A DNA stretch of 64,000 nucleotides from a virus. The notes beneath the pieces are model-generated. The model was not told the origin of the DNA, searched no databases, and saw only the letters and a list, made by a program, of their open reading frames with translations. The stretch lies in the IMG/VR virus record IMGVR_UViG_3300009159_000033, one strand, 5' to 3'. Of the stretch, positions 5,917-61,364 are shown one piece after another. The translations under genes and the position numbers were made by a program. The first letter of the stretch is position 1. Each line of letters opens with the position of its first letter.

Positions 5917-7812
5917 ATGTCAATGATGTCTTCGGGCAGCCCATTCTTTAATCGTAGCACCACTAACACTGGTTTTGCTGACCCTTTCAATGACATAGCC
6001 ACTACGCAGATGCCGACTACTATGAAGTCGGCACTGTGGTGGTCTGAATACATTTGGACGGTGCAAGGTACCTACCGCATGGCAATGGAACGCATTGTCA
6101 GCTATTTCATCACAGATATTGAGATAGGTGGCGATGTAAGCGATGACGAGAAAACTAAATATTCTGATTTTTTAAATAAACAATTAAATGTATTAGCTTT
6201 TCTTGGTCAGCTTATGCGAGACCGTCTTTGTTATGGTAATTCCTTTGCTAGCGTAGTTGTTCCATTTCGTAGATTTCTGCGTAATCCAAAAACTGGGGAT
6301 ATCTACCCACTCAAGTATGTATTTGATAACTTTGATTTTAAGTTTACAGAAGACTTTAAGTTTGAAGCCACTTGCCCAAAAACTAAATGGCGTGGTGCTT
6401 GGATCGTAGAAGACAAGGCAAGAGAAGAATCTAAACATGTGATTCTAAAGCGATGGAGTCCTCATGAGATAGAAATTTTACATGATCCATATACGGATGA
6501 AGTTGCCTACTTGTGGCGTATCCCCGAGTACTATAAGAAAATGGTAAAAGATGGAAATCTGTTTCATTTAGAACGAGCGAGTAAACAAGTCCTTGAAGCT
6601 ATTCGCACAGACAAATTGTTTAGGTTCAACCCAGATGCTGTCTTTCACATGAAAGAGCCAACTTTGGCAGGTATCCGCAACCTTGGCTGGGGTCTTCCCC
6701 GCAGTTTAACCAACTATCGTCAAATATGGTATGTACAGGTTCTTCGTAGATACAACGAAGCAATTGCCTTGGACTATGTTATTCCATTCCGTCTAATCAC
6801 TCCCGCTGCACGCAGTGGTGGTTCTAATGCAGGTAGCGTAGCCACACAAGACCCGATGTCTATTTACTCAGCGGGGGACTTCCGCTCTCAAGTTAGACAA
6901 ATGATCAATAGACGCAGACGGGATCCAGCAGCTTGGCAGCTTCTGCCTTTCCCAGTCAATTATCAGATCCTTGGTGGTGACGCTAAACAGCTAGCTCCTA
7001 CAGAGTTGATACAGCAAGGCACTGAAGAACTATTAAATGAGTGTGGTACTCCTGTAGAGTTCTATCAAGGTTCTTTGTCGCTACAAGCTGCACCTGTGGC
7101 TCTTCGCCTTTTTGAAAGCACCCATCGTCAGTTAGTTACAGATGCAAACACTTTCTTGCAGTGGATGGTTACTACCCTTAGTCAAATTATGTCTTGGGAA
7201 TCTGTAGAGTGTAGCTTACAGAGAGTTACCACTGCAGATGATATGCAGAAACAAATGGCTGCGTTGCAGTTAATGATGGGTCAGCAGTTGTCTGGCACAA
7301 CAGGGCTTCGTGCTATGGGTTATAGTTGGGATTCCGAACAGAAGCTACTCGCAGAAGAAGCAAGCAAACAGCAAAAGATGCAAGCTCGACAAGCTGAAGA
7401 AGCAGAGCAAGCTGGATTCGCTGCACAAGTATCTAAAGGTGTTAATCCAGAAGCTGGGGCGGGTGCTCCTCCCGCTGGTGGTGCTCCTCCAGCCGGTGGC
7501 GGTCCTGCCCCAGCGGGTGCTGGTGGTGCGCTTGGTGGTGGTGTTCCAACGCCTGTTACCACTTATTTGCAATCAATGGGTCCAAATGCAGCTATTACCC
7601 CTAATGACTTACAATCAACCGCAGAACAGCTAGCTCAAGAGTTGTTAGGCATTCCTGAATCAATCAAAGATTCAGAACTGCGTAAACTTAAGCAAAATAA
7701 TGCTACGCTGCATTCGATTACGCGCACCAAGCTAGACGAAGCTCGCCAGAAGATGAAAGCACAGGGCGGAGCTATGTTGCAGCAACAGCTGCAGCAAGGT
7801 GGCGGAGGTTAA
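5917..7812 (+). CDS. Probable portal protein with a Gly/Pro/Gln-rich C-terminal tail
   Basis: Portal-like segments LMRDRLCYGNSF, RWSPHEI, VFHMK...GWGLP; size 631 aa. Confidence 0.6.
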   Translation: MSMMSSGSPFFNRSTTNTGFADPFNDIATTQMPTTMKSALWWSEYIWTVQGTYRMAMERIVSYFITDIEIGGDVSDDEKTKYSDFLNKQLNVLAFLGQLMRDRLCYGNSFASVVVPFRRFLRNPKTGDIYPLKYVFDNFDFKFTEDFKFEATCPKTKWRGAWIVEDKAREESKHVILKRWSPHEIEILHDPYTDEVAYLWRIPEYYKKMVKDGNLFHLERASKQVLEAIRTDKLFRFNPDAVFHMKEPTLAGIRNLGWGLPRSLTNYRQIWYVQVLRRYNEAIALDYVIPFRLITPAARSGGSNAGSVATQDPMSIYSAGDFRSQVRQMINRRRRDPAAWQLLPFPVNYQILGGDAKQLAPTELIQQGTEELLNECGTPVEFYQGSLSLQAAPVALRLFESTHRQLVTDANTFLQWMVTTLSQIMSWESVECSLQRVTTADDMQKQMAALQLMMGQQLSGTTGLRAMGYSWDSEQKLLAEEASKQQKMQARQAEEAEQAGFAAQVSKGVNPEAGAGAPPAGGAPPAGGGPAPAGAGGALGGGVPTPVTTYLQSMGPNAAITPNDLQSTAEQLAQELLGIPESIKDSELRKLKQNNATLHSITRTKLDEARQKMKAQGGAMLQQQLQQGGGG

Positions 7813-17138: not shown

Positions 17139-18287
17139 ATGGCTAACATTCCTAAACTGCGATTGATGCTTGCTCGGCTGGAGAAAGAAGCTGCAGTAAC
17201 CAAGGCAGAGCTACCATGGCGAGACAGAGTTGAGGTCTACACTCAAAACCCCAAGGGCAAGATCTATGGTGGCATTTGGGACAATGACAAGTCCTTTGCC
17301 CTCCCTGGCGGTGGTATTGACGAAGGTGAGGATCCTTTAGTAGCTGCTTTGAGAGAGCTTAAGGAAGAGACAGGCATTACTGCCAAGAATCCTAGGTTGC
17401 TCCCTATTGATCCCGTAGACAGTCCTTGGAGTGATGCTCATAGAGCTAAGATTAAACGCAACTTCGCTGGTTCTAGAACGCACTTTGTTTTAGCGGACGC
17501 TATGGGTAGACGAGGTAACAAGAACTTAGATGTCTGGAATGCTTCTAATAGGGGTTATTATACACCAGCCAAAGCCATTGATATCATGAACAGCAACACT
17601 AATTACATGGCTCCTACAGCTGCTGCTGCTCGGCTCAAAGCTTTGCAGCATATCCAGTCCCTAGCCATGGCAGCAGCTAAAGAAAAGTCAGCCGCTCCAA
17701 TGAACCTATACTCTTACATTCCAAGTAGTTCTATCGAGCATGTAAAAAAGCATGGACTGTTATCGGGAAACGAATTAGCAAAGCCCGAAAATAGGCACTT
17801 GTTAGACATAGCTAGACCAGATGGAGATGCAGACAGATGGCTCAAAGAAAGGGATGCAAGATTAGCTAAGTCTCCATGGACAAACTCTTATAACGGCCCC
17901 TCTGCTTTCTTTGGGGACATAGACGCTGGGAAAATCCACGATAAGCACCCAATCAAGAAGTTTGATACAACTAGGGCTGTAATTAAATTACGAGAACTAT
18001 TGAGGGACTACCCCGCTACAAAGATGGAAGGTAGCGAATTGATTCCATTCTCAGACACTACTTACGATGCCTTAGATGAAAAAGGTCAAAATGAATTTGT
18101 GAATAAACGGCATCATACGCTATCATTGGACGAGATTAAGGCATTGCTGACGAGGGGTCAAAACCCGAAAGATATGTGGAAAGACTTCAAGGACACAGAA
18201 GGTAAGTACTACGCATCAGACGTGCCACATGCACAAGTTGTTACACCTATGGGAAAGATACCTTCTAAATACATTGAGTTTAAATAA
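17139..18287 (+). CDS. Nudix hydrolase fused to a second, possibly ADP-ribosyltransferase-like, domain
   Basis: Nudix box GGGIDEGEDPLVAALRELKEETG; linker KEKSAA; then LYSY...IEHVKKHGLLS and GKIPSKYI. Confidence 0.7.
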   Translation: MANIPKLRLMLARLEKEAAVTKAELPWRDRVEVYTQNPKGKIYGGIWDNDKSFALPGGGIDEGEDPLVAALRELKEETGITAKNPRLLPIDPVDSPWSDAHRAKIKRNFAGSRTHFVLADAMGRRGNKNLDVWNASNRGYYTPAKAIDIMNSNTNYMAPTAAAARLKALQHIQSLAMAAAKEKSAAPMNLYSYIPSSSIEHVKKHGLLSGNELAKPENRHLLDIARPDGDADRWLKERDARLAKSPWTNSYNGPSAFFGDIDAGKIHDKHPIKKFDTTRAVIKLRELLRDYPATKMEGSELIPFSDTTYDALDEKGQNEFVNKRHHTLSLDEIKALLTRGQNPKDMWKDFKDTEGKYYASDVPHAQVVTPMGKIPSKYIEFK

Positions 18288-24446: not shown

Positions 24447-25970
24447 GTGTTCAAATGCTCCGGCAGTACCTTTGATGCAATTGCACACTTAGCTGCCCAT
24501 GCTGCTAATTTAAATCTTACAAAATACGCAGACTTAAATTCTGGAATTGAACTGCAGCCTCATCAAGCAAGAGTTGTACGCAATGTACAAAATCAACTAG
24601 CTACTGAAGACAAGGTTAGACTGTTGCTGTACCAAGGGCTGGGCTCTGGCAAGACCTTAGGTGGTCTTGCTGCTGCTGAAAGCTCTAAGCTACCTTACAC
24701 CGCAATCGTACCCGCTGCTCTCCGTACTAATCTTAGGAAAGAGCAAGAGAAGTTCATCGACCAAGATACGGCGGTGCCTAGCAGCATCATGAGCCATACT
24801 GGGTTAGGTAGAGGGCTTCCCATAGCAAATCCTGACTCGTTGCTCATTGACGAAACACACCGGTTTAGGAACGCACAATCTTCTCAAACGCAGAACTTGT
24901 TAGATGCAGCTAGAAAAGCAAAGCAAGTAGTGATGTTGAGTGGTACACCTATTGTGAACTCTCCTGCGGATTTTGCAGTACCTTATAGCGTGCTTACCGG
25001 CAAGGATACGACCCCAGAAGAGTTTAGTGCTAGGTATGTGGACAACGACCCACAACCTTCGCTGTATCGCCGTTTCTTTAATTTAAAGGCACCCGATCCC
25101 GGCTTAAAGAATGTAGAGGAGCTGAAGAGCAACTTAAAAGGTAAGGTAGATTACTTTGCACCAGCTAAGCCTCAAGCAGAGATTAATAGAGAAGATGTGA
25201 TCACGGAGATGACTAGGGATCAAACAGACCTAAACTCACAGATGTATGGTAAGCTCCCCGCCTTGCTCAAATGGAAGCTACAACTAAACTACCCACTGAG
25301 TGACGCAGAGTCTAAGAAGATGGTTAGCTTTCTGACTGGACCAAGACAGCTAGGGTTGTCTACGAGCACATTCACGCAGGATAAGTCTGACCCCATGGCT
25401 GCGTTTAACAGCTCACCTAAGCTAACAGAAGCATTTAAAAGGGTTAACGAAATGATCCAAAAGGATCCTAAAGGTAAAGCTCTCATCTTTTCTAACTTCA
25501 TTGAGTCGGGCTTGAACCCTTATCAAGCTGCGTTGGACAAAGCGGGCATCCCTGCAGCATCCTTCACAGGAGCACTCTCTGACAAACAGCGAAAGAAGCT
25601 GGTAGACGACTATAACTCAGATAAGCTGAAGGTGGCATTGCTGGGGCCATCTGGTACTGAGGGGCTCTCGTTCAAAGGTACAAAGCTTATGCAGCTATTG
25701 GATCCACATTGGAATAATGTTAGGTCTGAGCAGAGTGAAGGGAGAGGATTAAGGTATGACAGTCATGCCCATCTTCCGCTTGCCGATAGGAAAGTAAAGA
25801 TAGAGCGGTACATAGCTAGGACAGCCCCAAGCCGATTAAAATCATTACTCCGCTACATTGGGGTTAAAGTTAATCCCTTATCTGCTACTGATGATTACCT
25901 CATTGCAGCGGGTAATCGTAAGCAGCAGCTAAATGACAAGTTCTTAGACTTACTCAAAGGATTAGATTAG
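24447..25970 (+). CDS. Superfamily 2 DExH helicase/ATPase (SNF2-related, NPH-I/VETF-like)
   Basis: LQPHQ, LLYQGLGSGKT, LLIDETH, LSGTP, LIFSNF, GTEGL, QSEGRGLRYDSH. Confidence 0.85.
   Translation: MFKCSGSTFDAIAHLAAHAANLNLTKYADLNSGIELQPHQARVVRNVQNQLATEDKVRLLLYQGLGSGKTLGGLAAAESSKLPYTAIVPAALRTNLRKEQEKFIDQDTAVPSSIMSHTGLGRGLPIANPDSLLIDETHRFRNAQSSQTQNLLDAARKAKQVVMLSGTPIVNSPADFAVPYSVLTGKDTTPEEFSARYVDNDPQPSLYRRFFNLKAPDPGLKNVEELKSNLKGKVDYFAPAKPQAEINREDVITEMTRDQTDLNSQMYGKLPALLKWKLQLNYPLSDAESKKMVSFLTGPRQLGLSTSTFTQDKSDPMAAFNSSPKLTEAFKRVNEMIQKDPKGKALIFSNFIESGLNPYQAALDKAGIPAASFTGALSDKQRKKLVDDYNSDKLKVALLGPSGTEGLSFKGTKLMQLLDPHWNNVRSEQSEGRGLRYDSHAHLPLADRKVKIERYIARTAPSRLKSLLRYIGVKVNPLSATDDYLIAAGNRKQQLNDKFLDLLKGLD
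24535..24550. promoter_or_regulatory. 16-bp palindromic site TAAATTCTGGAATTGA
   Basis: Exact consensus match inside the helicase CDS. Confidence 0.55.
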
Positions 25971-27014: not shown

Positions 27015-27125
27015 CTCTGTTTAAAGAATCAAATTAAAGTTAGCCCCAGCAATTGCTAAAGTTAACAAACAAAGTTAAAGTAATGACTAAGTTTGCGGTT
27101 TTGTTTCGATTTTATGGAGATAATC

Positions 27126-40680: not shown

Positions 40681-40890
40681 ATGCAGCAAGATAAAGGATT
40701 GACGGCACGGGAACGAGAGATAGTCATACTAATCAGCAAAAACTTAAAGTATAAAGACATTGCGATAAAGCTTAATCTTGGCTATGAAACAATTAAGACT
40801 TATGTTAAACGTATTCGTAAAAAACTAAACCTTTCCTCCAAGCTAGAGGTAGGGTTGTGGGGTTACAAACAAGGGTGGACAGAAGGTTAA
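40681..40890 (+). CDS. Stand-alone LuxR/GerE-type HTH regulator
   Basis: LTAREREIV...YKDIA.KLNLGYETIKTYVKRI..KL. Confidence 0.85.
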   Translation: MQQDKGLTAREREIVILISKNLKYKDIAIKLNLGYETIKTYVKRIRKKLNLSSKLEVGLWGYKQGWTEG

Positions 40891-45584: not shown

Positions 45585-47864
45585 GTGCAAATTACTTCTT
45601 TTAAAAAAGATGCTTCAGCTCGTAGTCATGTAGATTTAACGGTCAAGAAGCGAAGTGGCAAAGTGGTGAACTTCGATCAAGCTCGTATTTACACTGCTTT
45701 ACATCGTTGTTTGGTAAGTGAGCTGAAATACGATGAAGCCGAGGCAGCTCGCATCAGCAAACTAGTTGGTGAGCAGGTATACAACATTGTATGCAGCAGC
45801 AACAAAGTAGTAGATGTGGAAGAGATTCAGAATCTGGTGGAAACTCAATTGATGGCTAATGGGTTATACCTTGTGGCCAAGCAGTACATTCTCTTTCGAG
45901 AAGTAAAAAGACAGCAACGAGAAAACGCACCACTGCCAGAAGAAGTAATTGTCGCATTCCAAGAAAACGACACTTATTTTGATAATGAGTTACAGAAGTT
46001 TCAAGCATTAGACAAATTCGCACGCTTTGTCCCCGAGCTGGGTCGCAGAGAGACTTGGCCTGAAACAGTGGATCGGGTTATCGGATTTTTTCAAACACAT
46101 TGCAAGCGTGAAAACCACAATGTAACTGAAGAAGAATGGGGTAATCTTAAGCAAAGTCTTTTGCGGTTAGAGTCTGCTCCTTCCATGCGTTGTGTGCAAA
46201 TGGCTGGACCTGCTTTAGAACGATGTCATGTCGGAGTATACAACTGTTCTTTTCAAATGCTGCAGAATACTACAGATTTGGCAGAGGAACTCTATGTACT
46301 TATGCAGGGCACGGGTGTTGGATTTTCAGTGGAAAAAGAGTTTAGCGTAGAAGAGTTTCCTCGAGTTAAACGACAAAAGAAGCATAGTGAGCCTACTACC
46401 TATGTAATTGAAGACAGTACAGAAGGCTGGTGTGATGCATACAAGGCAGGGTTAGATGCATGGTGGGCGGGTGAAGATATTCATTTCGATTATAGTCATA
46501 TCCGAGAATCAGGTGCTCCACTTAAAATCAAAGGTGGAAGAGCTTCTGGCCCAGGCCCATTAAAAGACTTGTTAGAGTTTTCTAAAGCTCGAATCTTAGC
46601 AAGACAAGGACGGTATCTGTCTAGCTTGGATCTTCATGACATTAATTGTTTTGCTCATCGAATTGTGCGTATGGGTGGGGTGCGTAGGGCTAGTGGTATC
46701 TCTCTATCGGATCTGCATGATCGTGAAATGCGAGATTGCAAGCAACAAGATTTTTGGACTACTAATGAACAACGCAATCAAGCTAATAACTCTGCTGTTT
46801 ATAATGAAAAACCTGATCAATTGATTTGGATGGAAGAATGGCTATCGATGGCCAAGTCAAACTCGGGTGAGCGGGGTATTTTCAATCGAGGCGGGTTGAA
46901 AAGTCAATTCCCTAAACGTCGCAAACACCATGGTCACCTTTTTGGGACTAATCCTTGTGGTGAAATTATTCTGAGACACAAGCAGTTCTGCAACCTATCC
47001 ATTGCAGTTATTCGTGTCACAGACACTTATGAAGAGATTGCTCGTAAAGTGGAGTTAGCTACAATTTGGGGCACGCTTCAGTCTACGATGACTCGCTTTA
47101 AGTACATTGGAGAAGAGTGGAAAAAGAATAGTGAAGAAGAGAGGTTACTAGGCGTAGACTTGCTTGGTTTTCTTGATCATCCGCTATTCCAAGACAACGC
47201 AAAAGCTGGTGGAACCTTGGATAAGCTATTAAGCTTAGTCAACGAAGTTAATGCTAAATGGGCAGCACGATTTGGTATCAATGTATCTGCTGCTACAACT
47301 TGTATTAAGCCTTCGGGAGACAGCAGCGTGTTCTTCAATACGCCTGCTGGGTTCAAAGGACATCATGGGGAATGGTATGTTAGACGAGTTAGGGCAAACT
47401 CTACTAATCCAGTAGCGCAGATGTTGAAAGATGAAGGTGTACCTTGCCTTACGGATTACGATGGCAGTGGCTTGGTATTAGAGTTTCCTATGAAGGCTCC
47501 TAAAGGTGGCGTGTTGTTAGAAACTCAAACAGCGCTTAGCCAGTTGGAAAAATGGAAAACTTTTAAAGTACACTGGACTGAGCATAACCCTAGCGTGACG
47601 ATCTATATTCGACCCACTGAATGGCTGGAAGTTGGTAAGTGGGTTTATGACAACTGGGATATTGTCGGAGGGTTAAGCTTCTTACCTTTTGATGGGGGTA
47701 TGTATCACTTAGCACCTTATGAAGCGATTTCTCAAGAAGAGTTCGACCGTAGAACTGCAGCTATGCCTAAGATCAACTGGGCTAAACTGGTTCGTTATGA
47801 ACGCTCTGACATGACAGATCTACACCAGCAGACTGCGTGTGCCGGTGGTGCTTGTGCTTTGTAA
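45585..47864 (+). CDS. nrdJ: Class II (adenosylcobalamin-dependent) ribonucleotide reductase with an ATP cone
   Basis: VKKRSG cone; RETW.E.V.R, YNCSF, GTGVGFS, GGVRR, GTNPCGEI, CNLS, IKPSG, C-terminal CAGGAC. Confidence 0.88.
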   Translation: MQITSFKKDASARSHVDLTVKKRSGKVVNFDQARIYTALHRCLVSELKYDEAEAARISKLVGEQVYNIVCSSNKVVDVEEIQNLVETQLMANGLYLVAKQYILFREVKRQQRENAPLPEEVIVAFQENDTYFDNELQKFQALDKFARFVPELGRRETWPETVDRVIGFFQTHCKRENHNVTEEEWGNLKQSLLRLESAPSMRCVQMAGPALERCHVGVYNCSFQMLQNTTDLAEELYVLMQGTGVGFSVEKEFSVEEFPRVKRQKKHSEPTTYVIEDSTEGWCDAYKAGLDAWWAGEDIHFDYSHIRESGAPLKIKGGRASGPGPLKDLLEFSKARILARQGRYLSSLDLHDINCFAHRIVRMGGVRRASGISLSDLHDREMRDCKQQDFWTTNEQRNQANNSAVYNEKPDQLIWMEEWLSMAKSNSGERGIFNRGGLKSQFPKRRKHHGHLFGTNPCGEIILRHKQFCNLSIAVIRVTDTYEEIARKVELATIWGTLQSTMTRFKYIGEEWKKNSEEERLLGVDLLGFLDHPLFQDNAKAGGTLDKLLSLVNEVNAKWAARFGINVSAATTCIKPSGDSSVFFNTPAGFKGHHGEWYVRRVRANSTNPVAQMLKDEGVPCLTDYDGSGLVLEFPMKAPKGGVLLETQTALSQLEKWKTFKVHWTEHNPSVTIYIRPTEWLEVGKWVYDNWDIVGGLSFLPFDGGMYHLAPYEAISQEEFDRRTAAMPKINWAKLVRYERSDMTDLHQQTACAGGACAL

Positions 47865-51529: not shown

Positions 51530-54500
51530 ATGCTTCCACTTTCATCTAATTTGTTTGATTCTTCTAATCTCTCGTTGCTAGGGAATACACCTCCTTTAGC
51601 ACAGCCGATGCAGCCATTGCCACCCGCAACTCCATTGCCTAGCTTTCATGAATTTCATGACACTAAGAAGGTCAGATCTATTATCTACGATAGAGTGCTG
51701 CAAGCAGCTCAGCAGCTACAGCCTATGGCTAATGATCGGCATACGCTTAGTTTAACTGGAGTAAATTACCGTGATGGTGATACCGCTAGCAAACAGGAGC
51801 AGAAAGCTGCCATTCTTAATGGTAGATCCCAAGGACGTAGGCTAGAAGGTACTTGGGAGTTAATGGATAACGCAACACAACAAGTAATCGCTTCTAAGAA
51901 ATCAGTTCTTGCCACTGTGCCTCACTTGACGGATCGTGGCACCTTTATCAACAACGGCACTGAGTACATTCTAAGAAATCAACAGCGGTTATTGCCCGGA
52001 GTTTACACCCGCACACGGAACAATGGTGAAATTGAATCCCATGTTAATGTGATGCCTGGGAAAGGTGTATCACAGCGTTATTTCTTAGATCCCGAGAAAG
52101 GCAAATTTAAGCTTAAGGTTGGGCAAGCTTCAGTTGGATTAACTCCTTTGTTAAAAGCTATGGGAGTTACCTCGGAGCAGGCGCAGGAAGCTTGGGGTAA
52201 AGATCTATTCGCTTCTAATTACAATTCGGATGATGCATCCGAATACACACGGCTTAAAGGCATGTTTCTTTCTTCTAAAGAACTAGCTGAGCCAGAAGAA
52301 AAACAAAAACAAGCATTGCTTGCTAAGTTTTCTAAGATGGAAATGGATCCCGAGGTAAATCGTCGCACGCTGGGAAACCCACATTCAGGTGTCACACTAG
52401 ACACATTGATGGACATTACTAAAAAGCTGATAAAGGTTAATAGGAAAGAAGCGGATCCGGATGACAGAGATGCACTTCACTTTCAGCAATTTGTAGGTCC
52501 AGAAGATTTGTTTTCAGAGCGTATTGCCCGAGATAAAGGCGGGGTACGACGTAACCTACTTTGGAAGATGTCGGGCAAAGGTGATTTAAACTCAATGCCA
52601 TCTTCTGCTTTAGACAAACAGGTGAAAAGTGCTTTGCTTGGCAGCGGGCTGGGACAAGCTATTGAAGAAATTAATCCTACAGACATTTATGAAAAGACAA
52701 TGTCTGTTACTCGAGTAGGTGAGGGTGGTATTGGTTCTATGGATGCAATTCCCATGGAATCCAGAAATGTACAGTCAAGTATGCTGGGTTATGTCGATCC
52801 TGTGCGTACTCCCGAGTCGGGTCGTGTTGGGGTGGACACTTATCTGGCTAGGGGATCTCGTAAGGGAAGTGATGGTAAGCTCTATGCTCAGTTTAAGGAT
52901 ATGCGTAACGGGGAAATGACTTTTAAAACTCCTCAAGATGTAGCAGACCTAACTGTCGGTTTTCCCGGAAGCCAAGAAGGCGAAGATGGCCGTGTAGTGG
53001 CGATGCGTGGCGGTAAGATGTTACATGTACCTAAATCAAGCATTGATTTAGAGCTTCCTGACATGGAAGAAGCATTTAATCCTCTTTCCAATGTTATCCC
53101 TATGAAGAGTCAGGTAAAGGGTCAGCGATTAGTTATGGCATCTCGTATGACTACACAAGCATTACCTTTAGCTTCTCCCGAAGCTCCTTTAGTACAGTCA
53201 GCGGTTCCCCGCACAGGTGGCAAACAAAGTTATGAAGAGCTATACTCGGCTGGGATGGGAGCTTTAAGAGCTTCCCAAGGGGGCACAGTTACCTCCGTGA
53301 CAGATGAAGAGATTAAAGTGCGGAATGAAGATGGAACCGAGGAAACGCACGAACTTTATCACAACTTTCCTTTTAATCGTAAAACCTTTTTTCATCAAAC
53401 CGCTGCAGTTCAACCTGGCGACACATTTAAGCCAAACCAGTTGTTAGCAAGTTCTAACTTTACAAACAAGACAGGAACAATGGCTTTAGGTACAAATGCA
53501 CGTACCGCTTATATCCCATGGCAGGGTAAGAACTTTGAAGATGCAATTGTCATCTCAGAAAGTTTTGCAAAGAAGACAGCCTCTTCTCATATGTATCAGC
53601 ATGAGCTGGAAGTGGATGACAAAACACAAGTTGGTAAAAGACAATTTATTCAAGCATTTCCAGCTACATTCAAGAAAGACATATTAGCGAACATAGATGA
53701 TCAAGGAGTGATCAAACCAGGCACAGTAGTTAATTTTGGAGATCCTTTGGTACTAGGGATTACACAAAAGGAAAATGCATACAACAAGGTACATAAGAAG
53801 GGTCAAGCCGGGTTCAACGATGCAGCCGTACTTTGGCAGCATCACGATACTGGTGTTGTTACTGATGTGGTGATGGGTAAGAAGGGTCCGGTCGTTGTAG
53901 TTAAAGCAGAATCTCCAACGCAAGTTGGTGATAAGTTATCTGGTCGTTATGGGGACAAAGGTGTTATTGCGGACATTATTCCAGATAGCGAAATGCCACA
54001 CGATTCAAATAAGTTACCTTTTGAAGTGCTGCTTAACCCTCTTGGTATTATTAGTCGAACTAACCCTGCTCAAATGTCTGAATTGTTTCTAGGTAAAATA
54101 GCGGCTAAGCGTGGTATGCCGATTAAAGTAGATGATTTTGATACTAAAAAAGATATGACTCAATGGGTCATGCAAGAACTGGCTAAAGAAGGTTTGTCGG
54201 ACTTAGAAGACATTATAGACCCATCTAAAGAACAAAAAATTAAAAATATAGCAACTGGTAGTCGTTTCTTTATGAAGCTACATCATACTTCTGAGTCTAA
54301 AGGACAAGGTAGGAGCGGTGGTGCTTACACGATGGAAGATGCCCCAGCCAAAGGTGGCATTGAAGGTTCTAAGCGTATTGGGCTAATGGATGCTAATGCC
54401 TTGCTATCTCACGGAGCCACGGACACACTGCAAGATATCTTCACAGTTAGAAGGCAGAAGAATGATCAGTATTGGATGCAGTACATGTCGGGGTATAACC

Positions 54501-55996
54501 CTAAAGTTACTAAGGTTCCTTTTGCTTATCAGAAGTTTGTAGCCCAGTTACAATCTGCTGGTGTTAATGTAGTCAAGCAGGGAACGCAGACTCAGATTAT
54601 GGCATTAACGGACAAGGATATCGATAACTTAGCTGGGGATCGTGAGCTTAGCAGTGCCGATGGAGTGGAGTGGGGCAACCAGCTTAAAGAGATTAATGGT
54701 GGCTTGTTTGACAAGGCTAAGACCGGCGGGCATGGTGGCACTCGATGGTCGTTTATGCGTTTGCACGAACCTTTACCTAACCCAGTAATGGAAGAACCTA
54801 TCCGTCATATGCTTGGGCTAACACAGAAAAAGTTTGAAGGTATTGTGGCTGGCACAGAATTTTTAGAGAAATATGGAACCGGTACGAAAGCGTTACAAAA
54901 AGCATTAGCAGATCTTAATCCTGCTGCAGAAATTCCTAAAGCTCGGGCTATTATTGCGGCGGGTAGAGGGGCTCAGCGGGATGAGGCAATTCGTAAACTT
55001 GGTTATTTTAAATCGGCACAGAAACTTAATTTGCAGCCTGCAGACTACATGCTGACCAAAGTTCCAGTTCTTCCCCCAATGTTTCGTCCAGTTAGCTTGA
55101 TGAGCAACGGCATGCCATTGGTTAACGATGCTAATCACCTTTACAAAGAACTGTTTGAGGCTAATCAGAATTTTAGCAAAATGCAGCAAGAAGTAGGGGA
55201 AGAGGCTTCGGGATCGGAGCGTCTTTCCACCTATCAAGCATTTAAAGCGGTGACTGGTCTAGGAGATCCGATTAGTGCAAAAAGCCAAGAGAAGAATGTT
55301 CGTGGGGCTTTAAAAAATGTGTTTGGTGCAAGTCCTAAGTTTGGGATTGTGCAACGTAAACTGATTTCTTCTACAGTAGACAATGTGGGCCGAGCGGTAA
55401 TTACTCCAAATCCGGAATTGGACATGGACTCGGTAGGGCTACCCGAAGACAAGGCATTTAAGGTCTATGAGAAATTTGTTACTAGAAGATTGGTGCGACA
55501 AGGCATGTCTATGCTACAGGCTCGTACTCAATTAGAAGATAAGACTCCAGTAGCACGCAAGTTCTTGCTTGAAGAGATGGAGCATCGTCCTGTATATATT
55601 AGTCGTGCTCCTGTTTTGCATAAGTTTGGGATTATGGCAATGAGACCAAGATTGACTAAAGGAAATACCTTACAAGTGAGCCCTTTAATTGTAAAAGGGT
55701 TTGGTGCTGACTTTGATGGCGACACCATGAACTATCATGTGCCAAGTACGGAAAAAGCTAGGCAAGAGGCTTTTGATCGTTTGTTACCTAGTCGTAATCT
55801 TTTTAGCATAGGGGATATGAAATCTGTTATGCATGCCCCTGCTAATGAATACATTGGGGGTTTGTTTATGGGTACAGATCCTTCTCGTAAATCTGATCGA
55901 CCAGTACGGATTTTTCAGAACATACAAGATGTAAGGCGAGCACATGCGCGCGGAGATATTTCAATCAACGATCCGGTACGAATTTTAAATGGGTAG
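51530..55996 (+). CDS. rpoBC: Multi-subunit RNA polymerase beta subunit fused to the N-terminal half of beta'
   Basis: beta motifs GTFINNGTE, DPVRTPESG, NFEDAIVIS, GDKLSGRYGDKG, LNPLG, MKLHH; beta' motifs VPVLPPMFRP, GRAVI, SRAPVLH, catalytic GADFDGD at 55703-55723. Confidence 0.95.
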   Translation: MLPLSSNLFDSSNLSLLGNTPPLAQPMQPLPPATPLPSFHEFHDTKKVRSIIYDRVLQAAQQLQPMANDRHTLSLTGVNYRDGDTASKQEQKAAILNGRSQGRRLEGTWELMDNATQQVIASKKSVLATVPHLTDRGTFINNGTEYILRNQQRLLPGVYTRTRNNGEIESHVNVMPGKGVSQRYFLDPEKGKFKLKVGQASVGLTPLLKAMGVTSEQAQEAWGKDLFASNYNSDDASEYTRLKGMFLSSKELAEPEEKQKQALLAKFSKMEMDPEVNRRTLGNPHSGVTLDTLMDITKKLIKVNRKEADPDDRDALHFQQFVGPEDLFSERIARDKGGVRRNLLWKMSGKGDLNSMPSSALDKQVKSALLGSGLGQAIEEINPTDIYEKTMSVTRVGEGGIGSMDAIPMESRNVQSSMLGYVDPVRTPESGRVGVDTYLARGSRKGSDGKLYAQFKDMRNGEMTFKTPQDVADLTVGFPGSQEGEDGRVVAMRGGKMLHVPKSSIDLELPDMEEAFNPLSNVIPMKSQVKGQRLVMASRMTTQALPLASPEAPLVQSAVPRTGGKQSYEELYSAGMGALRASQGGTVTSVTDEEIKVRNEDGTEETHELYHNFPFNRKTFFHQTAAVQPGDTFKPNQLLASSNFTNKTGTMALGTNARTAYIPWQGKNFEDAIVISESFAKKTASSHMYQHELEVDDKTQVGKRQFIQAFPATFKKDILANIDDQGVIKPGTVVNFGDPLVLGITQKENAYNKVHKKGQAGFNDAAVLWQHHDTGVVTDVVMGKKGPVVVVKAESPTQVGDKLSGRYGDKGVIADIIPDSEMPHDSNKLPFEVLLNPLGIISRTNPAQMSELFLGKIAAKRGMPIKVDDFDTKKDMTQWVMQELAKEGLSDLEDIIDPSKEQKIKNIATGSRFFMKLHHTSESKGQGRSGGAYTMEDAPAKGGIEGSKRIGLMDANALLSHGATDTLQDIFTVRRQKNDQYWMQYMSGYNPKVTKVPFAYQKFVAQLQSAGVNVVKQGTQTQIMALTDKDIDNLAGDRELSSADGVEWGNQLKEINGGLFDKAKTGGHGGTRWSFMRLHEPLPNPVMEEPIRHMLGLTQKKFEGIVAGTEFLEKYGTGTKALQKALADLNPAAEIPKARAIIAAGRGAQRDEAIRKLGYFKSAQKLNLQPADYMLTKVPVLPPMFRPVSLMSNGMPLVNDANHLYKELFEANQNFSKMQQEVGEEASGSERLSTYQAFKAVTGLGDPISAKSQEKNVRGALKNVFGASPKFGIVQRKLISSTVDNVGRAVITPNPELDMDSVGLPEDKAFKVYEKFVTRRLVRQGMSMLQARTQLEDKTPVARKFLLEEMEHRPVYISRAPVLHKFGIMAMRPRLTKGNTLQVSPLIVKGFGADFDGDTMNYHVPSTEKARQEAFDRLLPSRNLFSIGDMKSVMHAPANEYIGGLFMGTDPSRKSDRPVRIFQNIQDVRRAHARGDISINDPVRILNG

Positions 55997-56068
55997 GCAA
56001 TATATCTCTATCCTAGATTTTGATTAGAACTTAGAATCATAAGATGAGATCACACAAGGAGTATGTTT

Positions 56069-56791
56069 ATGGCAGTTAATTTGGAATTGTTAAAGATGGC
56101 CCGACAACATGTAGGAAAACGCCATCTATCTAAATATGCATTTGTTGCAGCAGGTGACCCAGCTATGGGTGCTCCTATGCCTTCTGGCGGTGCTCCTCCT
56201 ATGGATCCTTCCATGGGTGGCGGTGCTCCACCTCCTGACCCTTCAATGGGTGGTGCTCCTCCTATGGATCCTTCTATGGGCGGTGGTGCTCCTCCTATGG
56301 ATCCTTCTATGGGTGGTGGTGCTCCACCTCCTCCCCCTATGGACCCAATGGCAGCAATTATGCCAATGGTTCAACAGGCAGTACAACAAGCAATGTCGGC
56401 TAATGGTGGTGGGCAACCGCAAGGTGCGGGCCCTGGGCTTAAACCTAAAATTGACATAAATGTTGAAATTGTACAAATTAAAAAGATGCTTGCTAAAATT
56501 ATTGATGCTCTTGGTATCCATGTGCCTGTGTCTGATATGGTGGTAACACCCGAAGATTTAAACCAGATTGCACAAGGTGGACCAGGCTTGGCAGCAGCTA
56601 CTCCCGATGGTAAGTCGGGTGGCGGTCTTGGGCAGATTGCCCCTATTTCTCCGATCAAGGCTGCTGAAGCGTGGGAAAGTGGCACAGCTTTTAGTTTATC
56701 AGCTGACTACTATCCTCAGCAGCCTTCTAATAAAAATGGCAGTGTAGCTGCAATGGCTACTGCTCTTTTAATGCGTAATAATAACAAGTAA
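56069..56791 (+). CDS. Pro/Gly/Met-rich repeat protein between the RNAP genes
   Basis: KMA/KYA leader, (GGAPPMDPSMG)n, then a short helical region. Confidence 0.6.
   Translation: MAVNLELLKMARQHVGKRHLSKYAFVAAGDPAMGAPMPSGGAPPMDPSMGGGAPPPDPSMGGAPPMDPSMGGGAPPMDPSMGGGAPPPPPMDPMAAIMPMVQQAVQQAMSANGGGQPQGAGPGLKPKIDINVEIVQIKKMLAKIIDALGIHVPVSDMVVTPEDLNQIAQGGPGLAAATPDGKSGGGLGQIAPISPIKAAEAWESGTAFSLSADYYPQQPSNKNGSVAAMATALLMRNNNK
56186..56349 (+). repeat. In-frame tandem repeat, 30-33-nt unit, about 4.5 copies
   Basis: GGTGCTCCTCCTATGGATCCTTCTATGGG units. Confidence 0.9.
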
Positions 56792-56804
56792 AGGGGTTCA
56801 GCGT

Positions 56805-57029
56805 ATGTTCATCGTGGAGGTTATTGAAAGTATTGGTAAGCCTCCACTTAGGATACCTGCTTCGCAGGTTGTAGTTCGAATGCAAGATGGTACTCCAGTA
56901 AGTGTAGCTGCACTTTTTGGAAGTGCTACTAGTGTGATGGTATCTCATTGTGAAGATGCTAATTTCAATGATAATTTGCGTAAACTAGGTATCAACGAAA
57001 CCGTTATTTCTACTAAAGTACAGGTGTAA
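56805..57029 (+). CDS. Small hypothetical protein
   Basis: 74-aa ORF, SD agggg. Confidence 0.55.
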   Translation: MFIVEVIESIGKPPLRIPASQVVVRMQDGTPVSVAALFGSATSVMVSHCEDANFNDNLRKLGINETVISTKVQV

Positions 57030-57030
57030 T

Positions 57031-57603
57031 ATGGACTCTTCTTTACGATCTTCTGACTACTACTACCGAGACCGAAAACCAGAGGTTATTCCCGAGATTG
57101 TTCCTACTCCTACTTATCAACAATCCTCTAGTATAAACTCTTCTAACAATAAGTATTATGCCGAGATGGGACCACTTGTTGCAGAAGATGTCCCTCTTAT
57201 TGCTAAGCTTCAGATGCCTCCGAAAGAAGTAGAATTGGAGATACTTGATGGTTGCTATGGCCTAGCTACCATACAAGCTGCATTTGAAGACGGAGCCACC
57301 CGCATCATAGTTAAAGCCTATGACTATGTAGTGACTCAACTGCAAGTTGCTGTAGACATGTCAGTGGGTCGTGGAGAATTAACACGAGAGCAAACAGACT
57401 CTATAGTTTTTGTTGTCTTAGCCCCAGAAGCTATTCTTAGCCCAGAAGAAGTAGCTCTACCTATTGTAGATATGCCAGAGGCGACTGCTGTTTTAAACGA
57501 GGCTCCTAAGCCATCTCGTAAAAAAGCAAAGCGTGGCAAGAGTGAGGAAATTACTCTTAAAGATATCGAAGCTGCCTTTGGTGGTGACGATAGTGACGAC
57601 TAA
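57031..57603 (+). CDS. Hypothetical protein
   Basis: 190-aa ORF abutting the previous stop. Confidence 0.55.
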   Translation: MDSSLRSSDYYYRDRKPEVIPEIVPTPTYQQSSSINSSNNKYYAEMGPLVAEDVPLIAKLQMPPKEVELEILDGCYGLATIQAAFEDGATRIIVKAYDYVVTQLQVAVDMSVGRGELTREQTDSIVFVVLAPEAILSPEEVALPIVDMPEATAVLNEAPKPSRKKAKRGKSEEITLKDIEAAFGGDDSDD

Positions 57604-57616
57604 AATCCAGATTTTA
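57601..57616. promoter_or_regulatory. 16-bp palindromic site TAAAATCCAGATTTTA
   Basis: Starts on the stop of 57031, 28 nt before the beta'-C ATG. Confidence 0.7.
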
Positions 57617-57644
57617 AATAATTTGCACACTCTGAGAACTATCC

Positions 57645-60600
57645 ATGTTGAATACGACCGTTGGACAACTGTTAATTAATGATGTCCTTCCGGAAGAGTT
57701 GAGAGACTCCCATCGTGTGCTAGACAAAAAAGGGTTGCAATCTTTACTACAGCAAGTGGCGCGGCAGCACCCAGAGAATTACCGAGATATATCTTTTAAG
57801 CTAAGTAATCTTGGTCAAAGTATAGCACAAGAGCAGGGTGGTATGTCGTTTGGGCTTCGTCACATGCAAGTAAGTAAATCTGCAATAGCTTCCCGCCAGA
57901 AGGTTAGAGCTTCTCTTACTAATATCCTAGCTGACGATTCTTTGACAGACCAAGAGCGAAACGAGCAGATTATTCGTGCAGTTGGCAAGGAAAGTCCAGA
58001 ACAGCAAAAACAAATACTTGCAGAAGCGTTAAAAGACAAGAACCCTCTCGGTATGCAGGTTATGTCGGGTACCCGTGGTAAGTCTATGAATCTAACTAGT
58101 TTGTTAGGTTCAGACATGCTGTATTCGGACCAGCGTGACGATGTAATTCCAATTCCTGTGCTGCGAAGTTACAGCGAGGGGCTGTCTCCTGCCGAGTACT
58201 GGGCTGGAACCTACGGAGCACGCAAAGGCATTATGGCAACTAAGTTTGCCACACAAGATGCTGGATTCTTTAACAAACAACTTAATCAAACTAGTCATAG
58301 ATTGGTAGTCACCGGAGAAGATGCCGAAGAGGCAGACGACGCACCTATCCGTGGATTAGTGGTGGATACTGATGATCCAGACAATGAAGGGGCATTGCTA
58401 GCTCGTAATGTTGGTCCTTACGCTAGAAATACTCCACTTACTCCAAAAATACTGAATCATTTAAAACGGCTTGGTACACCTAAAATCTTAGTGAGATCTG
58501 CCCTAGTGGGCGGGTCTCCCGATGGCGGTGTTTATTCTAGAGATGTAGGTATTAGAGAAACTGGAAAGCTGCCTGGGCTTGGCGAGCAAGTTGGGTTACA
58601 GGCTGCCCACGCTTTAAGTGAACCGATTAGCCAAGGTCAGTTATCTGCAAAGCATTCGGGGGGCGTGGCCGGACAAGAAAAAGCTGTTAGCGGTTTTCAG
58701 TATTTAAACCAATTAGTACAAGTTCCTAAGAAAATGCAAGGAGGGGCAGCCCACTCGTTAATGGATGGAGTGGTGCAGCGTATTGAAGAAGCCCCTGCGG
58801 GCGGGAGCTATGTCACCATTGGGGATAAACAACATTATGTAGGGGCTGGGTTTGAGCTTAAAGTAAAAAAAGGAGATGAGGTAGAGGCTGGTGATGTAAT
58901 TAGTTCAGGAATTCCTAACCCAGCAACTATTACCGAACATAAAGGAATTGGAGAGGGTAGGCGGTATTTTGTTAATGAGTTCCGCAAGGCGATGGGTGAC
59001 AGCGGAATGTTTGGGCACAGACGTAATATTGAGGTGTTAGCCCGAGGTCTTATCAACCATGTAAGGCTGACAGAAGAAACAGATGACCATGTGCCTGACG
59101 ATGTTGTTCCTTACTCTACGCTTGAACACACATACAAGCCACGAGAAGACCACCAGCGGTTAACTCCTAAGCGTGCATTAGGACAGTATCTAGAGCGCCC
59201 TGTACTGCACTACACTATTGGGACCAAGATTCGACCTTCTATGCTTAAGAATTTTGAAGATTTTGAAATTAATGAAATTCCAGTGCATAAGAACCCACCG
59301 CCATTTGAACCAAACATGGTTCGTGGGTTGTATCAAATGCAACATGATCCCGATTGGATGACACAAATGTATGGGTCTGGTCTAAAGAAAAGCTTCTTAG
59401 ACTCTGTGACTCATGGGGCTATCAGCGAAGAACGAGGTACAAGCTTTGTTCCAAGCTTAGCAATGGGTCTTGATTTTGGAGAAGGTAAAAACCATGCGGT
59501 AATAAAACCTCAGCCTAGTTATGAGCTACCGGCATTACCTCCACTTCCTCCCCCTATTCCTTCTACTCCTGCTGCGGCAAAGCCTACAGCTCCTAGCAGT
59601 GCTCCTTTTTTTGGCGGGCGTTTTACCCCTGGGCAAACTAAGCTAGGATTAGATAGCACACCTTCTGTGTCTAAGCCACCTTCTGTCTCTAAGCCACCTG
59701 CTGTAACCAGTATGTCACCAGTTTCTAAGCCTCTTAATACAAACATTATGCCTTCTCCTACTCCAGCCCCCAAAACTGCACCGACTACCCCAAGTTCAAA
59801 CCAATTTAGTAACTTGATGCAAAACGATACTTTTGCACAGCAAACTGGTCAGATGTTAAACGGAGCAGATCCTACAAGTGCACTTATGATGCTAGGAGGC
59901 ATGGCAGGGGGTAGTAATAACATGTCTCAGTTATTTAACTCTGGGCCTTCGCAGCGATTAGCCACAAGCGGTAGTGGCGGTGGAATGTTTGGTAATTTGT
60001 TTAATATGTTTGGGAATAACAATCAAAATGGGCAATCAATTATGCCCAGTGGAGATTACAACTCAGCTACAAATCAAGGCGGGATGTTGAGTAGTAACAC
60101 ATCTGCGGAATCTGCACCCGCATCTTCAGCAGAAGCAGTTCCTGCAGAGGCTACATCAAAAGCTGGTCCAGATATATTTACAGCTGTAGATCATGCACCG
60201 GCGGCCTATACCGCTATAAAAAATACAATCGTACCGCCTAAGGCATTACCTACTCCCCCTGCGCCTACTGCACTAGTGCCTAAAGCACCGCTACCTACAG
60301 CTCCAGCACCTATTACCCCTACTCCACCGATACCCAAAGCACCAATACCCAAAGCACCAATGCCAGCTGCACCAATACCAGCTGCACCCGGAGGTTTACT
60401 TAGTAAAGTAATGCCAGCAGTTTCCACGACTTACAAAACATTGGCTAAAGCAGCCCCTGGTATTGGAATAGCTTTAGAAACTGGGAGTGTCGGTTACGAT
60501 GTTTACAATAAGGGTTGGGATAACACAACTAACGACGCAGCACAAAATATAAGAAACATTGCTTCAGGTAAAGATGGGTTGCACACATTGTGGCAAGCTC

Positions 60601-61364
60601 CTGTTCAAATTTTAAACCCAGTGGCTAACGCACAGCTAATAGCAGGCGGTACAACTCAGACTGCACAGATGATTGGGGAGCAAGCTGGGATAGGTGCTGA
60701 AGCTATTCGAGATAAAGTAACTGGAACTGATGCTATTTCTCGTGCATCGGTTGTGGACAAATCAAAAGTTAACGCAATGGAAGTAGCAAAGCAAAAAGAT
60801 TTAGAAGCACAAAAAGCTAAGCTTCAGCAAGAGTCGCAAAATACAAATATCATGGCTCCCTCCATGATAGAACAAAATAAACAAGAGCAAGCTGGCATCG
60901 ATGCACAAATAGGAGACGCTAAAACTAGACAAGAAAATACGGCAGACGAAACAGCTAAGTGGAGATTAGGTCAGCAGAATTGGTTTGGGAGTGGCGGACA
61001 CAAATTCCGAGATGCCATGCAAAATTCGGTTGCAGCTACGGACACAGAGCTAGCAGATTTAAAAGCTAAAGGTGAATTAGATGCAGTAGGTCAAGCACGG
61101 CAGGAGCAGTTATTAAATAGACAGGCGCAGCGTAAGGCAATGCTGGGTACTTATGACCGAGAAAGCGGTTCCTCGGGTAAGGGATTATTCAGCAAGGATA
61201 TACGCAATCGGGTTAGCGGTCTTAAAGAAAACATTGTGGCAGTTACTGCACAGCTTCGAGATACTTCTCTTCCTCCTGAACAAAGGGCAAAGCTAGAAGC
61301 CCAATTGAAAACTAATAACGAGGACCTTGCTGAGTACCGAGGATGGGCAGAAAGTTCTAAATAA
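57645..61364 (+). CDS. rpoC: RNA polymerase beta' C-terminal half plus a ~620-aa low-complexity/coiled-coil extension
   Basis: TTVGQ, SGTRG, EGLSP, bridge helix GARKG...AGF, trigger loop GEQVGLQAAHALSEP...KH.GG, HRRNIEVL. Confidence 0.92.
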   Translation: MLNTTVGQLLINDVLPEELRDSHRVLDKKGLQSLLQQVARQHPENYRDISFKLSNLGQSIAQEQGGMSFGLRHMQVSKSAIASRQKVRASLTNILADDSLTDQERNEQIIRAVGKESPEQQKQILAEALKDKNPLGMQVMSGTRGKSMNLTSLLGSDMLYSDQRDDVIPIPVLRSYSEGLSPAEYWAGTYGARKGIMATKFATQDAGFFNKQLNQTSHRLVVTGEDAEEADDAPIRGLVVDTDDPDNEGALLARNVGPYARNTPLTPKILNHLKRLGTPKILVRSALVGGSPDGGVYSRDVGIRETGKLPGLGEQVGLQAAHALSEPISQGQLSAKHSGGVAGQEKAVSGFQYLNQLVQVPKKMQGGAAHSLMDGVVQRIEEAPAGGSYVTIGDKQHYVGAGFELKVKKGDEVEAGDVISSGIPNPATITEHKGIGEGRRYFVNEFRKAMGDSGMFGHRRNIEVLARGLINHVRLTEETDDHVPDDVVPYSTLEHTYKPREDHQRLTPKRALGQYLERPVLHYTIGTKIRPSMLKNFEDFEINEIPVHKNPPPFEPNMVRGLYQMQHDPDWMTQMYGSGLKKSFLDSVTHGAISEERGTSFVPSLAMGLDFGEGKNHAVIKPQPSYELPALPPLPPPIPSTPAAAKPTAPSSAPFFGGRFTPGQTKLGLDSTPSVSKPPSVSKPPAVTSMSPVSKPLNTNIMPSPTPAPKTAPTTPSSNQFSNLMQNDTFAQQTGQMLNGADPTSALMMLGGMAGGSNNMSQLFNSGPSQRLATSGSGGGMFGNLFNMFGNNNQNGQSIMPSGDYNSATNQGGMLSSNTSAESAPASSAEAVPAEATSKAGPDIFTAVDHAPAAYTAIKNTIVPPKALPTPPAPTALVPKAPLPTAPAPITPTPPIPKAPIPKAPMPAAPIPAAPGGLLSKVMPAVSTTYKTLAKAAPGIGIALETGSVGYDVYNKGWDNTTNDAAQNIRNIASGKDGLHTLWQAPVQILNPVANAQLIAGGTTQTAQMIGEQAGIGAEAIRDKVTGTDAISRASVVDKSKVNAMEVAKQKDLEAQKAKLQQESQNTNIMAPSMIEQNKQEQAGIDAQIGDAKTRQENTADETAKWRLGQQNWFGSGGHKFRDAMQNSVAATDTELADLKAKGELDAVGQARQEQLLNRQAQRKAMLGTYDRESGSSGKGLFSKDIRNRVSGLKENIVAVTAQLRDTSLPPEQRAKLEAQLKTNNEDLAEYRGWAESSK

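Follow-up and report, generated by a model that had tools for sequence, protein, structure and literature searches.

We describe the RNA polymerase genes of an uncultured freshwater phage (IMG/VR record IMGVR_UViG_3300009159_000033), which lie in a stretch of 64,000 nucleotides (hereafter the window) of a 172.7-kb record that is 84% complete. The first gene (51530..55996, + strand; 1488 aa) encodes the whole of RNAP beta fused to the N-terminal, catalytic half of beta', and the second (57645..61364, + strand; 1239 aa) encodes the C-half of beta' and a long low-complexity tail. The two genes are separated by two ORFs of unknown function, one of 242 aa (56063..56791, + strand) that has no Cys, is Met-rich and carries GGAPPMDPSM-type repeats, and one of 190 aa (57031..57603, + strand) with 1 Cys; the 242-aa ORF had no PHROG hit and only a sub-threshold Pfam hit. 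A portal protein with 4 Cys (5917..7812, + strand), the orthologue of gp204 of Salmonella phage Arash (BLASTP, E 4e-49), shows that the window lies in a virion-gene region.

The beta::beta'N chain was identified by Pfam (Rpb2_6, 1.4e-50; Rpb2_3; Rpb1_1 and Rpb1_2, 1.2e-23), and a phmmer search of the PDB placed residues about 100-1036 on bacterial beta and 1110-1486 on beta'/cyanobacterial gamma. The catalytic Mg-binding motif is retained as GADFDGD (55703..55723, + strand; NADFDGD in E. coli). The 600-aa core of beta'C (57645..59444, + strand) comprises the bridge helix, the trigger loop and Rpb1_5 (Pfam, 1.2e-18); its AF2 model has a pLDDT of 87.2 and a pTM of 0.79, and the top Foldseek hits of the model are bacterial beta' (TMq 0.70-0.74, prob 1.0). 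The core is followed by a C-terminal extension of 639 aa (59445..61364, + strand) that is rich in Ala, Pro, Gly, Ser and Thr, is absent from Arash and Vibrio phage D69, and evolves fast, with at most 33% identity to the tail of relatives whose core is 72-74% identical; an Atlas feature search of this tail gave uninformative scores of 0.84 or less. The record holds only one Rpb2_6 and one Rpb1_5 gene and no match to alpha (PF01000) or omega (PF01192), although the use of host subunits, or a second polymerase in the missing part of the genome, cannot be excluded.

Absence of cysteine and of both Cys4 sites

The original prediction that both chains lack Cys, that the N-terminal zinc-binding domain of beta' is deleted and that the second zinc site is substituted was confirmed in every factual element, including the Cys-rich NrdJ nearby and the absence of Cys from the N4 virion RNAP. 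Both chains have 0 Cys, against 1.08% over the + strand ORFs of the window and 1.33% over 198 ORFs of the whole record, which gives a probability of 1.4e-16 for 0 Cys in 2727 aa. The triplets TGT and TGC occur 0 times in the reading frame but 37-83 times in each of the other five frames of each gene, so the depletion is at the protein level and is not a nucleotide bias. The NrdJ-type reductase in the window (45852-47864), by contrast, has 13 Cys in 670 aa. Met is not depleted (3.83% against 2.62% for the genome), and the pressure is therefore on thiols and not on oxidisable residues in general.

A MAFFT alignment with E. coli RpoC (from NC_000913.3), Arash gp206 and D69_0261 showed a gap of about 32 residues in all three phage proteins where E. 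coli has C70/C72/C85/C88 (zinc-binding domain, about 62-100), and the junction in the present protein reads GGLFDKAKTGGHGGTRWSFMRLH (54698..54766, + strand). At the second site, E. coli C814 aligns with Ala227 inside EDAEE (58317..58331, + strand), and C888, C895 and C898 align with G290, Y297 and D300 inside RSALVGGSPDGGVYSRDVG (58494..58550, + strand). None of the four former ligand columns holds His. In 64 members of the clade, R284, S285, G295, D300 and G302 are invariant and G289, G290, G294, Y297 and R299 are at least 90% conserved; this is a conserved, presumably metal-free replacement motif, and the model is confident through this region (pLDDT 84-95 over residues 221-310).

The Cys-free state is conserved among homologues. 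Of 104 intein-free beta::beta'N homologues at 53-96% identity, 94 have 0 Cys and the maximum is 3, and 63 intein-free beta'C homologues have 2 Cys in 37,870 core residues. None of 150 clade representatives has Cys at any ligand column of the second site, and Asp at the C898 column is invariant. Loss of the second site defines a large, monophyletic uncultured clade, of which no cultured member was found in 50,697 phage records: a nucleotide search with 24 kb of the window gave no match, and tblastn of both chains returned only Arash and D69 at 27-30% identity, plus bacterial rpoB/C in contaminated 'phage' records.

Comparison with other RNA polymerases

The closest known enzymes are those of Arash (gp206 and gp216, with sigma gp10 and helicase gp217; OQ632216.1, PMC10585845) and of Vibrio phages D69/D148/D181, which share the beta::beta'N fusion, the split point in beta', the deletion of the zinc-binding domain at the same place and the location of the genes among portal and head genes; sigma, helicase, MCP, portal and TerL are orthologous. 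Cys is nearly absent from these enzymes too. Their beta'C, however, is about 606 aa long without a tail, and Arash and D69 keep the four Cys of the second zinc site (C232/284/291/294). These ligands are kept in all 120 clusters of the Arash group and are the only Cys in the chain in 113 of them (Cys has been purged wherever it was dispensable), whereas the present protein and the 150 clade representatives lack them and most carry a long tail. Because Arash and D69 share the deletion of the N-terminal domain, this loss predates the Cys-free state. Neither Cys nor the zinc sites are discussed in the published Arash paper. A tree of beta'C, built with a quick method only, did not resolve whether the clade and the Arash group are sisters (support 75), and the deep order of these two groups and of the bacterial and phiKZ sequences is unresolved, with long branches meeting.

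The N4 virion RNAP gp50 is carried in the capsid and ejected into the host, and it has 0 Cys in 3500 aa; Cys suppression is conserved in the ejection proteins of Schitoviridae such as DEV gp71-73 (PMC11445570). It is, however, a single-subunit T7-like polymerase that is unrelated in fold, and Pfam, PHROG and PDB searches with the present chains returned only multisubunit beta/beta' families. The cellular relatives of the present enzyme need two Cys4 zinc sites, so becoming Cys-free required deleting one site and rebuilding the other.

The multisubunit RNAPs of phiKZ and AR9 also have no alpha or omega, and the phiKZ virion set (gp80, gp149, gp178, gp180) is packaged. The N-terminal zinc-binding domain is described as shared by all msRNAPs (Lane and Darst 2010, as cited in PMC7618050), but it is reported absent from the AR9 nvRNAP (PMC7618050), and gp180 of the phiKZ vRNAP has no CxC...CxxC pattern, so its loss is not unique to the present enzyme. 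The phiKZ enzymes are split into 4-5 very divergent chains and use no sigma; the vRNAP has 16 Cys in 2614 aa, including a pattern like the second zinc site in gp80, and the nvRNAP has 33 Cys and both site patterns. The present enzyme is much closer to bacterial beta/beta' (E. coli RpoB/RpoC, the cyanobacterial split beta', the Helicobacter beta-beta' fusion), with which it shares domain order, catalytic motif, bridge helix, trigger loop and fold, and the split of beta' lies near the cyanobacterial gamma/beta' boundary. E. coli has 7 + 15 Cys, and beta' of Rhizobium phage RHph_Y65 keeps 16 Cys and both zinc patterns.

Inferred packaging and alternative explanations

The explanation that we consider most likely is that this enzyme, probably the only RNA polymerase of the phage, is packed into the capsid, stored in the free virion and delivered into the host with the DNA to start early transcription, probably with a phage sigma-like factor and an SNF2 helicase, and that newly made copies carry on later transcription. 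Selection on a protein that is stored outside cells, and probably passes unfolded through the tail and the cell envelope, would have removed every thiol. In this view, the N-terminal zinc-binding domain was deleted in an ancestor shared with Arash and D69, and the second zinc site was later rebuilt, once, at the base of the clade, into a conserved motif inferred to be metal-free (VGGSPDGGVY-x-RDVG plus a variable residue at the first ligand). Packaging and ejection are inferred from orthology and Cys content, without virion proteome, expression or metal data for any member of the clade. The original prediction's reference to passage through an oxidising periplasm is one of several thiol-related explanations, and it is not established that a periplasm exists, as the host is unknown; a search through NrdJ found only a 90%-identical copy on a 79-kb contig binned in a Gemmataceae MAG, which could equally be a binning artefact.

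Support comes from mass spectrometry of Arash virions (PMC10585845), in which gp206 is the top protein (128 unique peptides, 3516 spectra) and gp216, helicase gp217 and sigma gp10 have 40, 38 and 24 unique peptides, although the list of 116 proteins clearly includes carry-over. Abundant Arash virion proteins are Cys-poor (gp206 1/1525, gp217 0/472, gp10 0/234, gp4 0/1097, MCP 0/307), whereas its undetected or barely detected enzymes are not (TerL 13/532, primase 12/965, helicase gp197 9/537, second sigma gp196 3/345). The present genome has Cys-free orthologues of gp217 (24789..25970, + strand; 393 aa; Pfam Helicase_C and SNF2-rel; 33% identity, E 2e-57), of gp10 (L005:17718-18455:-, on another piece of the record) and of the MCP. 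Pfam Sigma70_r2 did not hit the record, and the gp10 orthologue was found only through TIGR02937 below cut-off, Sigma70_r3 just above cut-off and BLASTP; a second, Cys-rich sigma-like ORF (L008:2661-3575:-; 14 Cys in 304 aa) has only a weak BLASTP match to gp10 (E 8e-5) and no Pfam hit. As the phiKZ virion RNAP keeps 16 Cys, packaging does not by itself demand a Cys-free enzyme.

It is unlikely, but possible, that the polymerase is not packaged and that the lack of Cys and zinc sites is an intracellular or environmental adaptation, for instance to zinc or sulphur scarcity in freshwater hosts, or to a host defence or phage-induced redox change that attacks thiols and zinc fingers. The habitat is freshwater metagenomes, and the AR9 nvRNAP indicates that loss of the N-terminal domain does not require packaging. 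However, other enzymes of the genome are Cys-rich (the reductase, and several ORFs at 2-5%), so a proteome-wide sulphur or zinc economy is not seen, and the Cys-free set coincides with orthologues of proteins detected abundantly in Arash virions (polymerase, sigma, helicase and MCP) and the genes sit among head genes.

It is similarly doubtful that a new site built from His, Asp or Glu replaces the lost Cys4 sites, a reading that is compatible with packaging. The beta'C core has 3.2% His against a genome mean of 2.0%, H218, H337, H522 and H548 are invariant and H370, H397 and H472 nearly so, and a non-Cys metal site elsewhere cannot be excluded. Judged from the alignments and without measured distances in the model, three of the four former ligand columns hold residues that do not bind metal (variable/Ala, Gly, Tyr/Phe/Leu/Trp) in all 150 representatives, H337 is the ordinary trigger-loop His, H218 lies at the end of the bridge helix, and no His cluster lies near the deletion junction. 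Loss of Cys by drift is very unlikely despite the long stem branch of the clade (2.22 changes per site), given the low probability for this genome alone, the maintenance of the state across more than 100 clusters down to about 50% identity, the conserved replacement motif, the retention of the four ligand Cys and no others in 113 of 120 clusters of the Arash group and the presence of Cys in inteins inserted in relatives, which shows that Cys codons are freely available in these genomes.

A broader reading, which we regard as about as likely as not, is that a widespread clade of uncultured freshwater phages packages and injects a complete bacterial-type transcription kit (beta::beta'N, beta'C, a sigma factor and an SNF2 helicase) that is entirely thiol-free and needs no structural zinc. 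This would show that neither of the two zinc sites, which are treated as universal in multisubunit RNA polymerases, is needed for folding, assembly or catalysis, with the Arash group representing the intermediate state, and would extend the avoidance of Cys in ejected phage proteins from single-subunit N4-type enzymes to a multisubunit holoenzyme. Such an enzyme would also be a ready-made Cys-free multisubunit RNAP for site-specific labelling and biophysics. Absence of Cys may serve as a sequence-only marker for packaged and ejected proteins in uncultured phages. PHROG and Pfam scans of neighbouring and other Cys-free ORFs were mostly blank. In this genome the marker flags, besides the sigma factor and the helicase, two giant proteins and a NUDIX-domain protein of 382 aa (17139..18287, + strand; Pfam NUDIX, 2.7e-12), which from its lack of Cys alone is possibly a further packaged enzyme.

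Structure of the RNA polymerase genes

The window corresponds to the minus strand of positions 50152-114151 of a single IMG/VR virus record of 172,719 bp, which is linear and 84% complete by CheckV. The first polymerase ORF (51530-55996, 1488 aa) carries Pfam Rpb2 domains 3 and 6, followed by Rpb1 domains 1 and 2. Against PDB sequences, residues about 100-1036 match bacterial beta and residues 1110-1486 match the N-half of beta', or cyanobacterial gamma; the protein is therefore all of beta fused to the catalytic half of beta'. The second ORF (57645-61364, 1239 aa) carries Rpb1 domain 5 in its first 600 residues, and an AlphaFold2 model of this core (pLDDT 87.2, pTM 0.79) superposes on bacterial beta' with TMq 0.70-0.74. 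The catalytic GADFDGD motif, the bridge helix and the trigger loop with its His are present. Only one Rpb2_6 gene and one Rpb1_5 gene, and no alpha or omega, were found in this incomplete record.

The remaining 639 aa of beta'C (59445-61364) form a tail that is rich in Ala, Pro, Gly, Ser and Thr, is absent from Salmonella phage Arash and Vibrio phage D69, and evolves fast. It is poorly conserved even between relatives whose core is 72-74% identical, and its length in relatives varies widely (whole proteins range from 643 to 2577 aa). A role of the tail in packaging or ejection, by analogy with the terminal domains of N4 gp50, is a guess only. Between the two polymerase genes, a 242-aa ORF (56063-56791) with tandem GGAPPMDPSM-like repeats contains 8.7% Met and no Cys, and has no family assignment.

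Absence of cysteine and of both zinc sites

Both polymerase chains have zero Cys. With a Cys content of 1.33% over 198 ORFs of the genome, the probability of this result for 2727 residues is P = 1.4e-16. The triplets TGT and TGC are absent from the reading frame but occur 37-83 times in each of the other five frames of each gene, and the depletion therefore acts on the protein. By comparison, the reductase encoded in the window has 13 Cys in 670 aa. In an alignment with E. coli RpoC (from NC_000913.3), the stretch holding C70/72/85/88 is replaced by a gap of about 32 residues, with the junction at 54698-54766. C814 aligns with Ala227 in EDAEE, and C888, C895 and C898 align with G290, Y297 and D300 in RSALVGGSPDGGVYSRDVG at 58494-58550; no His stands at any of the four columns. 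The original prediction, which had described a polymerase without Cys in which the N-terminal zinc-binding domain of beta' is deleted and the second zinc site is substituted, was thus confirmed, and its coordinates and motifs are all correct.

A word-indexed search with beta::beta'N listed 120 clusters at 53-96% identity. Of the 104 without inteins, 94 have no Cys and none has more than three, whereas the long, Cys-containing ones carry LAGLIDADG or intein domains. Many relatives carry such inserts inside the polymerase genes, in beta'C at about residues 187-210 and 323-334, and these hold nearly all the Cys seen in the family, so the spliced polymerase would still be Cys-free. An exhaustive HMMER search with the beta'C core gave 1072 proteins at E below 1e-30. 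In all 150 best representatives (47-74% identity), none of the four former ligand columns is Cys; the pattern is x-G-[Y/F/L/W]-D, and the Asp is invariant. In 63 intein-free members there are 2 Cys in 37,870 core residues and 9 in 36,936 tail residues. The surrounding motif is itself strongly conserved, with R284, S285, G295, D300 and G302 invariant, and the model is confident across this region (pLDDT 84-95). This is a rebuilt element under constraint, not a decaying one, although a new non-Cys metal site cannot be excluded. On a quick maximum-likelihood tree the clade is monophyletic (SH-aLRT 100) on a long stem, but deeper relations are unresolved.

Comparison with other phage RNA polymerases

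The nearest cultured phages are Salmonella phage Arash and Vibrio phages D69, D148 and D181, at 27-30% identity. They share the same fusion, the same split and the same deletion of the zinc-binding domain, but their beta'C keeps four Cys at spacings that match the second zinc site, and no others. Across 120 clusters of that group, 113 have exactly these four Cys and 7 have five. The beta::beta'N chains of Arash and D69 have 1 and 2 Cys, respectively.

Other phage enzymes differ. The beta' of Rhizobium phage RHph_Y65 keeps 16 Cys, including both zinc patterns. The phiKZ non-virion RNAP has 33 Cys in 2850 aa (1.16%) with both patterns, whereas the phiKZ virion RNAP has 16 Cys in 2614 aa (0.61%), with a pattern like the second site in gp80. 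By Cys positions alone, the virion beta'N of phiKZ (gp180; phiKZ locus L014:22787-24259:-) lacks the CxC...CxxC zinc-binding pattern that its non-virion paralogue keeps (gp55, C58/60/73/76; phiKZ locus L012:7924-9186:+). The N-terminal zinc-binding domain has been reported in the structure of the phiKZ nvRNAP and to be absent from the AR9 nvRNAP (PMC7618050). Loss of the N-terminal domain therefore has precedents, but complete loss of the second site and of all Cys in an enzyme this close to bacterial beta' was not described in any paper that we could find.

Inferred packaging of the polymerase

In Arash virions, the orthologue gp206 is the most abundant protein by MS, with 128 unique peptides and 3516 spectra, followed among the enzymes by gp216 (40 peptides), helicase gp217 (38) and sigma gp10 (24); likely carry-over enzymes have 2-3 peptides (PMC10585845). 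The abundant virion proteins of Arash are nearly Cys-free (gp206, 1/1525; gp217, 0/472; gp10, 0/234; gp4, 0/1097; MCP, 0/307; gp229, 2/2548), whereas its undetected or barely detected enzymes are not (TerL, 13/532; primase, 12/965; helicase gp197, 9/537; second sigma gp196, 3/345). The present genome has orthologues of the virion helicase (24789-25970 in the window; 33% identity, E 2e-57), the virion sigma (L005:17718-18455:-, a locus about 32 kb downstream of the window's end in window orientation; E 1e-17) and the MCP, and all three have zero Cys. It also has orthologues of the portal (5917-7812 in the window, 4 Cys) and TerL (13 Cys).

Cys suppression in ejected proteins is documented for N4 gp50, for which we verified 0 Cys in 3500 aa, and for Schitoviridae in general, where the proposed cause is passage through the periplasm with its disulphide-forming enzymes (PMC11445570). 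In the present enzyme, Met is enriched rather than depleted, which points to thiol chemistry (disulphides, metal sites) rather than oxidation in general. These results indirectly support the original interpretation, which took the Cys-free N4 enzyme as the precedent for passage through the oxidising periplasm, although packaging, ejection and metal content are inferred for this phage, whose host is unknown, passage through the periplasm is one of several thiol-related explanations, and the phiKZ vRNAP shows that a packaged multisubunit RNAP can keep some Cys. The DNA occurs in freshwater metagenomes. A contig encoding a 90%-identical NrdJ (L021; JBDNHI010000047.1, 79,124 bp), which has the same length as the longest contig carrying the RNAP homologue P0003, is filed in a Gemmataceae (Planctomycetota) MAG; this is either a host hint or a binning artefact.

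The sigma-like protein homologous to Arash gp10 comprises 245 aa, with a Sigma70_r3 match above cut-off (26.7 bits) and a weak region 4. A 304-aa ORF with 14 Cys (locus L008:2661-3575:-) shows weak similarity to gp10 (E 8e-5) and could be a second, non-packaged sigma, but has no Pfam support, and a 72-aa open frame (40696-40830 in the window) has a sub-threshold match to sigma-70 region 4 (TIGR02937, 23.9 bits). Further large Cys-free ORFs encode a NUDIX protein of 382 aa (17139-18287 in the window) and unknown proteins of 938 aa (27114-29930 in the window), 2044 aa (locus L006:1830-7964:-), 382 aa (locus L007:5273-6421:-) and 399 aa (locus L007:2541-3740:-), which are candidates for capsid-internal or ejected proteins if absence of Cys marks packaged proteins.
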